This document shows positions 61,889 through 64,000 of a DNA stretch of 64,000 bases, one piece after another; within the stretch, counting starts at the first letter, position 1, and each line of letters opens with the position of its first letter. The translations under genes were made by a program, and so were the position numbers. The stretch comes from a virus. Location: positions 17,141-81,140 of the IMG/VR virus record IMGVR_UViG_3300020185_004330. The stretch is one strand, 5' to 3'. The notes beneath the pieces are model-generated. The model saw only the letters and a program-made list of their open reading frames with translations. It did not search any database and had not been told where the DNA came from.

Positions 61889-62188
61889 TTGAGTCATCCG
61901 TATAAATATAATAAATACAGCAATCCTAACTTAGAGTGGGAAAGAAAGCTTATTTTATATTGTAACTTTATTTCAGATAGACTTAAAAGTTATTTGGCAA
62001 AAAAGAATATGACAACAAAAGAGTTGTCTAAAAAAATTGATATTTCACACGAAAGTGCTAAATTGATGCTAGATGATGTTTATGTGTATAATTTTAACTT
62101 AGAGGAAATGAGCAAATTAGACCTTTTGTTTGAGGGTCATTATGATGTTTATGAAAAAAAGATTTTAATAGAAAAGTTAAACATTTAG
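61889..62188 (+). CDS. Hypothetical protein, possible HTH
   Basis: MTTKELSKKIDISHESA...YNFNLEEMSKL. Confidence 0.45.
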   Translation: MSHPYKYNKYSNPNLEWERKLILYCNFISDRLKSYLAKKNMTTKELSKKIDISHESAKLMLDDVYVYNFNLEEMSKLDLLFEGHYDVYEKKILIEKLNI

Positions 62189-62910
62189 TTAGAACCGCTA
62201 TAGTTTTTTCTTGGCTCCATTTTTTCATAAAAACCTTCTTTAGAACCTTTCCAATCCCAAGGCAATCCATGTTCTATGTTGTATTCCAATTGACTGTCAG
62301 AAACGCCTTTAAGCTTAAGTAGTGCCTTTTTCAATAAAGGTATATTATCTTTTGATAAAGATTCAGATATTACATCTCTAACAATAATTCTTATTGATTC
62401 ATTTATTTTAAAACCTTCTGAATCAATCGCCTTTAAATATGAAGTTGAATCCTTTTGATACCTAGCCAGCTCCTTTAATTCATCTCTTAATTCATCGTCT
62501 AACTCAGTCAAGTCAGATGTAGTGCTTTCATAATCTTCCAAGCCTTTTCCTATAGTTAAATAATCTAAGTTGTCATTTATGTATTCATATAAAATATATT
62601 CATCCAGTTCCCAATCTCCCAATTCTTCTTCAGGCATTCCATCTTCATCAAAGTCAACGCTTAAAATGCTCCTTGTTGCATAAGGCTCTAATTCACCTTT
62701 GTCTAAAAGATAAATGTTAAATATATATTTTTTACCAGATGATTTATCTTGCAAAATAGCCATTTCGTTGTTATCACTAAATATTACATCCATTTTGTAT
62801 TCTTTAGCCTCTTTTCCTTTTTTTTCATTTTCACCATCTCTCCAAGGCGCATTAGACATATGTTCCGCACCTAGGGGTAAATTGCTATTATTTTCTTCTA
62901 TTTTTTTCAT
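62185..62910 (-). CDS. Hypothetical acidic protein
   Basis: 241-aa ORF containing INESIRIIVRDVISES. Confidence 0.6.
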   Translation of the reverse strand: MKKIEENNSNLPLGAEHMSNAPWRDGENEKKGKEAKEYKMDVIFSDNNEMAILQDKSSGKKYIFNIYLLDKGELEPYATRSILSVDFDEDGMPEEELGDWELDEYILYEYINDNLDYLTIGKGLEDYESTTSDLTELDDELRDELKELARYQKDSTSYLKAIDSEGFKINESIRIIVRDVISESLSKDNIPLLKKALLKLKGVSDSQLEYNIEHGLPWDWKGSKEGFYEKMEPRKNYSGSN

Positions 62911-62916
62911 AATAAT

Positions 62917-63054
62917 CTATCTTCCTTGACCTCTATATTTTTTTTTGTAATTCTTAGCATTCTTAGACCTAGATGTTTTGTTTTTAGAATGAATACCTGG
63001 TCTCTTTTTTCTCATTATACCAAGGTTGTTACTAGATGATTTTGATTTTGCCAT
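62917..63054 (-). CDS. Small very basic protein (45 aa)
   Basis: MAKSKSSSNNLGIMRKKRPGIHSKNKTSRSKNAKNYKKKYRGQGR; TATTTAT box upstream. Confidence 0.6.
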   Translation of the reverse strand: MAKSKSSSNNLGIMRKKRPGIHSKNKTSRSKNAKNYKKKYRGQGR

Positions 63055-63133
63055 TTTAATTTTAATTGTTAATAATAAATATGAAAAAATTTCATTTATT
63101 GACTTTGGTGAACAATTTTCTTATCTTGCATAA

Positions 63134-63463
63134 ATGACTAAAAGTCTTTTGATAGAAAAGTACGAACATTTGTCTCTTAATTTAGCTTCTGTTCAAGTAA
63201 CAGGAGAATGTAGAACCTTAAGAGTGGCTTGGACTCCTGTGTTTACTCAAGATTTAGACTATTATACTCAAATAACAAATAGTTATGAGCATGAAGAGCC
63301 TGAGAATGTATATAAAAAGATATTATTAATTGAAAAGTATGTACCAAAAAAACTTACTGGATTTGATACTGAAGCTGAGCTAACAGATATACTATCAAGA
63401 CAATTAGCTCAAGAAATTGATAGAGAAATCTTATGTAATTTAACAAACTTAGAGAATGAGTGA
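63134..63463 (+). CDS. Mini-protein containing a major-capsid-protein (gp23-like) fragment
   Basis: CRTLRVAWTPVFTQDL...FDTEAELTDILSRQLAQEIDREI resembles T4 gp23 SRQLKAAYSIELAQDL...MDADAELSGILATEIMLEINREV. Confidence 0.65.
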   Translation: MTKSLLIEKYEHLSLNLASVQVTGECRTLRVAWTPVFTQDLDYYTQITNSYEHEEPENVYKKILLIEKYVPKKLTGFDTEAELTDILSRQLAQEIDREILCNLTNLENE

Positions 63464-63542
63464 TTTATTTGAAGCACCAATAGGTACATTGTTTTATATG
63501 GACTATAATAGTAATTCAATTCAAATAAAAGAATGCTATTAA
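63456..63542 (+). CDS. 28-aa mini-ORF resembling the gp23 PTG..F segment
   Basis: MSDLFEAPIGTLFYMDYNSNSIQIKECY; overlaps the previous stop. Confidence 0.35.
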   Translation: MSDLFEAPIGTLFYMDYNSNSIQIKECY

Positions 63543-63575
63543 TTGAAAGAAGAAAAAGAAAAAGAAGACTAGAAA

Positions 63576-63821
63576 ATGAAGTTGGAAAAAAAATTTATAG
63601 ATAGCTGGATTAATACATACAAAAGAACTTTATTAATTGAAAAGTATGTTGAACATAATGTTCGAGTTTTAGAAACTGATTTCACTGTTTTAGGTTATGA
63701 CTTAATCACATCTGGTTCAACTATAATCGGAATTAGCTCTAGAGCAGTCGGCGGCCCAATTAATGAGCCCATCAATATAGAGAATGTAGAACATATGAGA
63801 AATAATTTTGGTGATGTGTAA
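63576..63821 (+). CDS. Mini-protein containing a tail-sheath (gp18-like) N-terminal fragment
   Basis: STIIGISSRAVGGPINEPINIENVEHMRNNFG resembles T4 gp18 STGTAALAGKFQWGPAFQIKQVTNEVDLVNTFG. Confidence 0.5.
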   Translation: MKLEKKFIDSWINTYKRTLLIEKYVEHNVRVLETDFTVLGYDLITSGSTIIGISSRAVGGPINEPINIENVEHMRNNFGDV

Positions 63822-63872
63822 TATTTTTGAATAATTTACGTTTATATAAAACAACGATTAAAACAATAAATC

Positions 63873-64000
63873 ATGAGCTTAACACAAAAGGAAAAAGATA
63901 TAATTCAAGAAAGAGTAGAAAATATGACATCTAAACAAAGAAGTCGTAGAATGGATAGGTTAGTAAATGAATCTATAGTTAAGAGTGTCTTTGTGCATGT
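63873..64000 (+). CDS. Hypothetical protein, truncated by window end
   Basis: MSLTQKEKDIIQERVENM... is open to the window end. Confidence 0.5.
   Translation, partial: MSLTQKEKDIIQERVENMTSKQRSRRMDRLVNESIVKSVFVH

Follow-up and report, generated by a model that had tools for sequence, protein, structure and literature searches.

Introduction

In T4 the prohead protease gp21 cuts after Glu in the motif L/I-x-E, its own N-terminus carries 'LIE-9', and the core proteins gp67 and gp68 are cut into several fragments (PMC9026906; the I/LxE motif is also given in PMC12991175). The capsid targeting sequence (CTS) is the first 10 residues of the internal protein IPIII, where residues 4 and 7 direct targeting and residues 8 and 10 direct processing (PMC9026906). 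The T-even internal proteins (IPI, IPII, IPIII) are a highly diverse set that share only this conserved targeting sequence (PMC3012670).

Structural proteins of tailed phages are now recognised as major targets of bacterial immune sensors, and the head protease itself is sensed by CBASS, which responds to prohead-protease cleavage of a disordered loop containing LxE (PMC12991175). Several defence families sense major capsid proteins (MCPs) through their conserved core folds (bioRxiv 10.64898/2026.01.04.697583). The Gol peptide of T4 gp23 activates the Lit protease through EF-Tu; 29 residues define Gol function, and Gol has been called the most conserved part of gp23 (PMC3014915). The 29-residue Gol region lies at about residues 93-122. 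Finally, satellites encode capsid-redirecting proteins (P4 Sid, SaPI CpmB, the PICI Ccm MCP homologue) that derive from, or mimic, head proteins and interfere with capsid assembly of another element.

Here we describe a small, fast-changing cassette of mini-genes in an uncultured marine giant phage, stitched from the most conserved pieces of a T4-type MCP and a tail sheath, each behind the same 13-residue tag. The arrangement is, as far as our searches reach, undescribed. Its function is inferred.

Results

Genomic setting

The window analysed is a stretch of 64,000 nucleotides, bases 17141-81140 of an 87,981-bp linear IMG/VR virus contig (IMGVR_UViG_3300020185_004330) estimated to be 27% complete, with about 29-36% G+C. 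The contig encodes a gp6-like baseplate wedge protein and thus belongs to a myovirus; relatives reach 390 kb. The cassette lies among small genes: a YqeY-like gene, an HTH_26-like gene, a divergent 241-aa gene and a divergent 45-aa basic gene. Positions of all features are collected in Table 1; L-numbers are our labels for contigs and P-numbers for proteins retrieved from the databases.

Table 1. Features of the cassette and its surroundings (positions are those of the window unless a contig is named)
Position	Strand	Feature	Description
63099..63129	+	Conserved upstream element	TTGACT, 17 nt, TATCTT(GC) (hexamers at 63099-63127), ending 4 nt before the ATG of ORF A; possible promoter giving a very short leader
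63134..63463	+	ORF A, 109 aa	Short leader ending LLIE-K (residues 5-9); MCP strand segment (about 14-43); full tag ENVYKKILLIEKY (57-69); MCP spine-helix segment (about 76-105)
63305..63345	+	Tag-coding repeat inside ORF A	AATGTATATAAAAAGATATTATTAATTGAAAAGTATGT; repeat families D1 and D2; near this point the similarity of the window to the L005 lineage rises
63456..63604	+	Degraded ORF B	Frames 63456-63542 (28 aa, with APIGTLFYMDY) and 63533-63604 (23 aa, MLLIERRKRKRR); keeps MSDL, the last 11 residues of the MCP Gol-like block, the second tag (MLLIER) and the Arg-rich tail; about 215 nt deleted after 63468, 5-nt tandem duplication near 63513
63576..63821	+	ORF C, 81 aa	Leader with tag YKRTLLIEKY (residues 15-24); mimic of the tail-sheath N-terminus (about 24-81, ending NNFGDV)
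63545-63580		AGA/GAA repeat at the B/C junction	Variable length; poly-Arg in the frame of B, poly-Glu in the overlapping upstream extension of C; also L006 6560-6620 and L018 3940-4000
61889-62188	+	HTH_26-like ORF, 99 aa	Pfam HTH_26 E 2e-4; last residues (DVYEKKILIEKLNI) are a copy of the tag
62150..62178	+	Further tag copy	VYEKKILIEK, at the C-terminus of the HTH_26-like ORF; conserved in L006 and L018, lost in L019
62185-62910	-	Conserved protein, 241 aa	Invariant C-terminal motif GLPWDWKGSKEGFYEKMEPR; no Pfam or PHROG family; dN/dS about 0.1 among close relatives
62917-63054	-	Extremely basic ORF, 45 aa	MAKSKSSSNNLGIMRKKRPGIH...KKKYRGQGR; divergent from ORF A; conserved; no family match; dN/dS about 0.1 among the close relatives L006, L018 and L019
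5520-7388	-	gp6-like baseplate wedge subunit	phrog_219, E 3.9e-22; the large neighbouring ORFs have no family match
L004 6099-10182		Contig bases upstream of the window	Run of nucleotide-sugar epimerase and aminotransferase genes, and a 547-aa protein matching phrog_1745 ('DNA transfer protein', E 2.9e-152)
L026 5790-6408; L027 5760-6414		Tag-less pair of mini-MCP ORFs in other marine phage contigs	Share an 'MEPxKKI' leader; downstream of Mom-like genes

Capsid and sheath segments

The original prediction, made from the sequence alone, was that this locus holds mini-genes built from capsid and sheath fragments and joined by a repeated LLIEKY peptide, and this observation is confirmed: all four reading frames read as described. 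For ORF A, the predicted resemblance to consecutive segments of gp23 is supported by several comparisons. Pfam Gp23 (PF07068) matches residues 74-105 to profile positions 165-196 (E 8.5e-8, 32.4 bits against a curated cut-off of 24.4), a weaker match covers profile positions 129-163, and phrog_138 matches with E 2.5e-6. The hhalign comparison of the family against five full T4-type MCPs gave a probability of 99.0% (E 4e-18) and aligned A 11-105 to MCP 323-387, so that two segments adjacent in MCPs are separated in ORF A by a tag insert of roughly 28 residues, ending KKILLIEKY, that stands opposite a gap and is lacking in real MCPs. PDB profile matches place the segments at T4 gp24 151-178 and 180-211. 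A tblastn search with ORF A found one place per record in 536 records of isolated phages, and every annotated one among the 25 listed is a capsid gene.

The two short frames following ORF A are not independent mini-genes, as had been supposed, but two halves of one ancestral gene, ORF B, which has been deleted and frameshifted in the window. ORF B is intact, with 99-119 aa, in the related contigs L005, L006, L007, L018 and L023, where it reads as a leader, the tag, an MCP N-terminal block (FP.ARRV....LVSVQP.E.P.G.LFY.DY), a second tag and an Arg-rich tail. The block matches T4 gp23 residues 92-126 and the MCP profile at a probability of 98.1% (E 6.6e-14). Thus the short frame that had been likened to the segment ending the Gol peptide retains only the end of this block, and the Gol-like core is missing from this genome, although a near-identical strain keeps it. 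This is a real strain polymorphism, since contigs from a run of another study lack the duplication and contain the missing piece, whereas contigs of a run that may be the source agree with the window.

The resemblance of ORF C to the gp18 sheath N-terminus is weak by HMMER (phrog_23, positions 21-79 of 496, E 0.013; E 3.3e-4 per genome), but hhalign of 14 family members against four sheath N-termini gave a probability of 97.9% (E 4.5e-13). The family carries the N-terminal sheath signature (SPGV..E.D.S ... GP.N.P..I.S..eF...FG), although in the copy of the window SPGVY has diverged to HNVRV. A tblastn search with the C module of a relative matched 37 phage records; all 15 listed rows lie under an annotated tail sheath or in an unannotated record, and the four that were opened begin within seven codons of the sheath start. 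A PDB profile search with ORF C returned only chance hits to HUWE1. By analogy with the first ORF of the second family described below, ORF C was also considered as an MCP C-terminal piece, but this was rejected, as hhalign found no match to MCPs and a strong one to sheath N-termini.

None of the products is a complete structural protein. A complete HK97-type MCP (N-arm, E-loop, P and A domains) has about 450-580 aa in native order, whereas ORF A covers only Gp23 profile positions 129-198 of 376, interrupted by a tag, ORF B covers positions 5-51, and the order is permuted. Likewise, ORF C lacks the full sheath domains, which span 500-800 aa. The AF2 model of ORF A (pLDDT 58.9) is confident only for the spine helix, residues 79-107, and that of the tag-less family (pLDDT 54.3) shows no confident fold; the idea that the pieces rebuild a stand-alone HK97 P-domain is unsupported. 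Complex prediction of ORF A with ORF B gave a score of 0.00, which speaks neither way.

Conservation, recombination and selection

The A-B-C cassette lies at the same place in six related contigs (L005, L006, L007, L018, L019 and L023, the last from a 390-kb contig), in which C has 80-95 aa. Database searches found about 37 sequence clusters of A, about 40 of B, and about 10 of C, the latter from 11 representatives, two of them B-C fusions, with E up to 0.001 among 1.84 billion cluster representatives; no real sheath appears among these 11. Two further proteins, P0123 (4450 aa, 38 repeats) and P0129 (1076 aa, also repetitive), match ORF C positions 38-71 (G.DYDL.S....GR.I.API), which was judged to be probably chance similarity amplified by the repeats. 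All family members come from metagenomes, and blastn of the region and tblastn of ORF C found nothing among isolated phages. A protein atlas look-up added nothing about the locus. In metagenome annotation the genes are called 'hypothetical' or, misleadingly, 'Gp23 domain proteins'.

A second, tag-less family, likewise not found in any isolated phage, consists of proteins of 135-146 aa (for example P0071, P0072 and P0045) that fuse the same MCP strand and spine helix directly to the Gol-like strand, in the same non-native order. A 78-84-aa ORF carrying MCP C-terminal strands precedes them, and both ORFs share an 'MEPxKKI' leader. P0168 links the two families, having MCP C-terminal pieces, tags and the Gol-like piece.

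The exon-like shuffling proposed in the original prediction is supported as recombination at the tag-coding repeats. In L019 a tag-to-tag deletion fuses the N-terminus of B to the body of C, and P0015 (an A-C fusion) and P0037 (an A-B fusion) are further tag-to-tag recombinants. The window itself is a mosaic: positions 63280-63520 are 82-92% identical to L005, whose flanks are 30-78% identical, and positions 63520-63760 are 89-99% identical to L006, L018 and L023, although ORF A is only 64-74% identical to them. Breakpoints lie near the tag-coding repeats.

Neutral decay with frameshifts across relatives, named beforehand as a refuting outcome, was not observed for A and C, which are open in all 7 genomes examined, at dS up to about 2, in an AT-rich (29% GC) genome. 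The invariant residues of A are those conserved in real MCPs (W-TPE..QD and E..L...L.......I...I), plus the tags. For distant pairs dN/dS is 0.19-0.66 for A and about 0.6-0.7 for C, while neighbouring genes give mostly 0.1-0.3. Close relatives show no purifying selection (dN/dS at or above 1), with almost no synonymous change but many replacements, though counts are small and partly confounded by recombination: L006 against L023 across A, B and C gives 4.5 synonymous and 34.5 non-synonymous differences, whereas the flanking genes of the same pair have dS above 1 (Fisher p about 0.002-0.008). With such counts in a recombination mosaic, positive selection is not claimed.

The tag

From 87 distinct copies, the consensus of the tag is (K)-E-N-[VI]-Y-K-[KR]-x-L-L-[IV]-E-K, and all 87 carry L-[LI]-x-E. 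It is conserved as a peptide, with synonymous codon differences between copies. The core peptide [LI][LI]IE[KR] occurs in five open frames, all within 62162-63630; the only other match in six frames of the 88-kb contig sits in a frame full of stops. The full tag occurs nowhere in the contig outside this locus. ORF A begins with an 8-13-residue leader ending L-I-E, of the form M-x(2-9)-[KR]-x-L-L-I-E-K across the family, and thus has a short N-terminal leader ending in an L/I-x-E site, although this is a pattern match only. Homology of the tag to the MCP propeptide 'LLENQ' or maturation site is not statistically supported (hhalign E 0.38 and E 0.1) and remains a resemblance by position and by eye.

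No full MCP, full sheath or prohead protease was found on the 88-kb contig or on five related IMG/VR contigs. A DNA pattern scan for the tag in IMG/VR found no full-length MCP carrying it, and the other hits were unrelated.

Upstream element and expression

The host-type promoter noted in the original prediction exists as a sequence, with 9 of 12 matches in a sigma-70-type scan, and the block TTTCATTTATTGACTTT...TTTTCTTATCTTGCATAAATG is conserved in close relatives. However, promoter-like sites in this region are no more frequent than in shuffled sequence, and a promoter function remains putative. Exact contigs covering 63332-63549 and 63604-63921 occur in two metatranscriptome libraries, which is compatible with transcription but does not prove it, since these are contigs only and DNA carry-over cannot be excluded; parts without cover mean nothing.

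Discussion

We hold the anatomy with high confidence. The sequence analysis itself shows a three-gene cassette of small, mostly disordered proteins in a lineage of uncultured marine jumbo myoviruses, with modules copied from the most conserved blocks of a T4-type MCP (the strand before the spine helix, the spine helix, and the N-terminal block) and from the first ~55 residues of a tail sheath, each module preceded by the tag, and with modules swapped, fused and deleted between strains at the tag-coding repeats. Everything beyond this, namely early expression, targeting, cleavage, packaging, and binding to EF-Tu, to immune sensors or to structural subunits, is inferred. The original interpretation of the locus is therefore supported in part: conserved, recombining mini-genes are confirmed, whereas early expression and a decoy or dominant-negative function are not shown, and the tag, to which no role had been given, points to a different or additional mechanism.

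Our tentative best reading is that the products are tagged mimic peptides recognised and cut by the head-maturation machinery. In this view the tag is a processing and targeting signal: its invariant L-[LI]-x-E core matches the L/I-x-E site of T4-type prohead proteases, and its layout (aromatic residue at -7, hydrophobic at -3 and -2, Glu at 0) resembles the CTS of T4 internal proteins, whose diversity around a shared leader parallels the mosaic and the tag-to-tag fusions seen here. ORF B looks like a truncated MCP N-terminus and is collinear with it, so descent of the tag from the end of the MCP propeptide is plausible, albeit without statistical support. The products would then be recognised like MCP or core proteins by the scaffold and protease and cut into 30-50-residue peptides, which would act by mimicry, binding whatever normally binds those MCP and sheath segments. 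At that, the absence of a prohead protease from the available contigs leaves the cleavage motif of this phage itself unidentified, and other giant phages use A/S-x-E (PMC5694885). A sheath fragment has no obvious place in a head, the tag-less family keeps the same MCP pieces, so that the mimic segments matter independently of this tag, at the C-terminus of the HTH protein cleavage would remove only four residues, and close relatives show no purifying selection.

Two other readings share the idea of mimicry and remain live. The peptides may be cytoplasmic immune decoys, presenting the epitopes recognised by Lit/Gol-type, CapRel-type or Avs-type sensors and binding these without activating them, or soaking up a protease-sensing tripwire, with the tag as a handle or a competing protease substrate. 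In agreement with this, the modules are the most conserved blocks of two abundant structural proteins, one of them matching the Gol region, abundant disordered multi-LxE peptides could compete with the loop sensed by CBASS, the tag-less family keeps the mimic pieces, and the cassette evolves fast, varies in presence between strains, is exchanged horizontally, and sits among small accessory genes behind a conserved promoter-like element. However, a copy of a sensed epitope would be expected to trigger an abortive-infection sensor rather than block it, a literature search turned up no example of a structural-fragment decoy, the Gol-like module is the dispensable one, being lost in the window and in L019, and no host or host defence system is known for this phage; we regard this reading as possible but doubtful. 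Less likely still, the peptides may add onto unassembled MCP and sheath subunits by strand or helix mimicry, either poisoning the assembly of co-infecting T4-type phages or preventing premature polymerisation of the phage's own subunits. The sheath N-terminal arm and the MCP strand and helix elements form inter- or intra-subunit contacts in the contractile-sheath 'handshake' and the HK97 fold, the mostly disordered models fit folding on binding, residues conserved in real MCPs are retained, and MCP and sheath pieces together make sense only for a myovirus-wide assembly target. On the other hand, this leaves the tags unexplained, self and foreign targets cannot be told apart without the phage's own MCP and sheath, and a self-chaperone would be expected next to the structural genes and under steady purifying selection, not in a mosaic accessory cassette.

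That the ORFs are debris of a scrambled structural module, with the repeat a DNA-level recombination scar, is very unlikely and largely refuted. The broken or deleted ORF B in the window and in L019, dN/dS near or above 1 among close relatives, and the lack of an autonomous fold in the AF2 models would agree with it, but the open frames of A and C, the many diverged clusters with the same architecture, the peptide-level conservation of the tags, the invariant MCP-critical residues and an independent second family with the same permuted order all argue against it. A broader possibility, somewhat less likely than not, is a previously unrecognised class of phage genes, modular 'structural-mimic' peptides, in which short, conserved, interface-forming segments of capsid and sheath proteins are each fused to a protease or targeting tag derived from the capsid propeptide and shuffled by recombination at the tag. 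They would serve as weapons in phage-host or phage-phage conflict, for example as decoys for structural-protein or protease sensors or as poisons of a rival's assembly, and the tag-less family suggests that the strategy arose more than once.

A conserved, recombining cassette expressing only the most conserved pieces of capsid and sheath proteins behind protease-type tags would be a new kind of phage accessory system, whether it acts on immune sensing, on assembly, or as packaged peptides. It also gives a natural, testable set of minimal MCP and sheath epitopes, and is a clear case of domain-fragment shuffling mediated by a short coding repeat.

Like the T-even internal proteins and the core proteins gp67 and gp68, these are small proteins with a short conserved leader ending in L/I-x-E, some with several such sites (as in gp67 and gp68) and some with basic segments, encoded away from the main head gene cluster in highly variable loci where only the leader is conserved (PMC9026906, PMC3012670). 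However, Pfam and PHROG scans of A, B and C returned only MCP and sheath families and no homology to IPI-III, gp67 or gp68, the tag has 13 residues and is also used internally and at a C-terminus, and the payloads are MCP and sheath fragments rather than independent folded proteins, with packaging and cleavage only inferred. The Gol peptide, to which the block in ORF B of the family is homologous, is a short gp23 region active on its own, but it is part of the full capsid gene and not a separate gene, and the window keeps only the last 11 residues of the block. With full-length T4-type MCPs and gp18-type sheaths the cassette shares significant profile matches to specific segments in the correct relative positions; however, only 30-65 residues of each are present, the middle MCP piece precedes the N-terminal piece, the A-domain, the insertion domain and the sheath domains beyond the first ~55 residues are absent, and these proteins cannot build a capsid or a sheath. 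Finally, the satellite proteins P4 Sid, SaPI CpmB and PICI Ccm are similar as genes derived from, or mimicking, head proteins, but they are full domains with demonstrated binding, carried by satellites and not by a jumbo phage, and have no repeated tag and no sheath piece.
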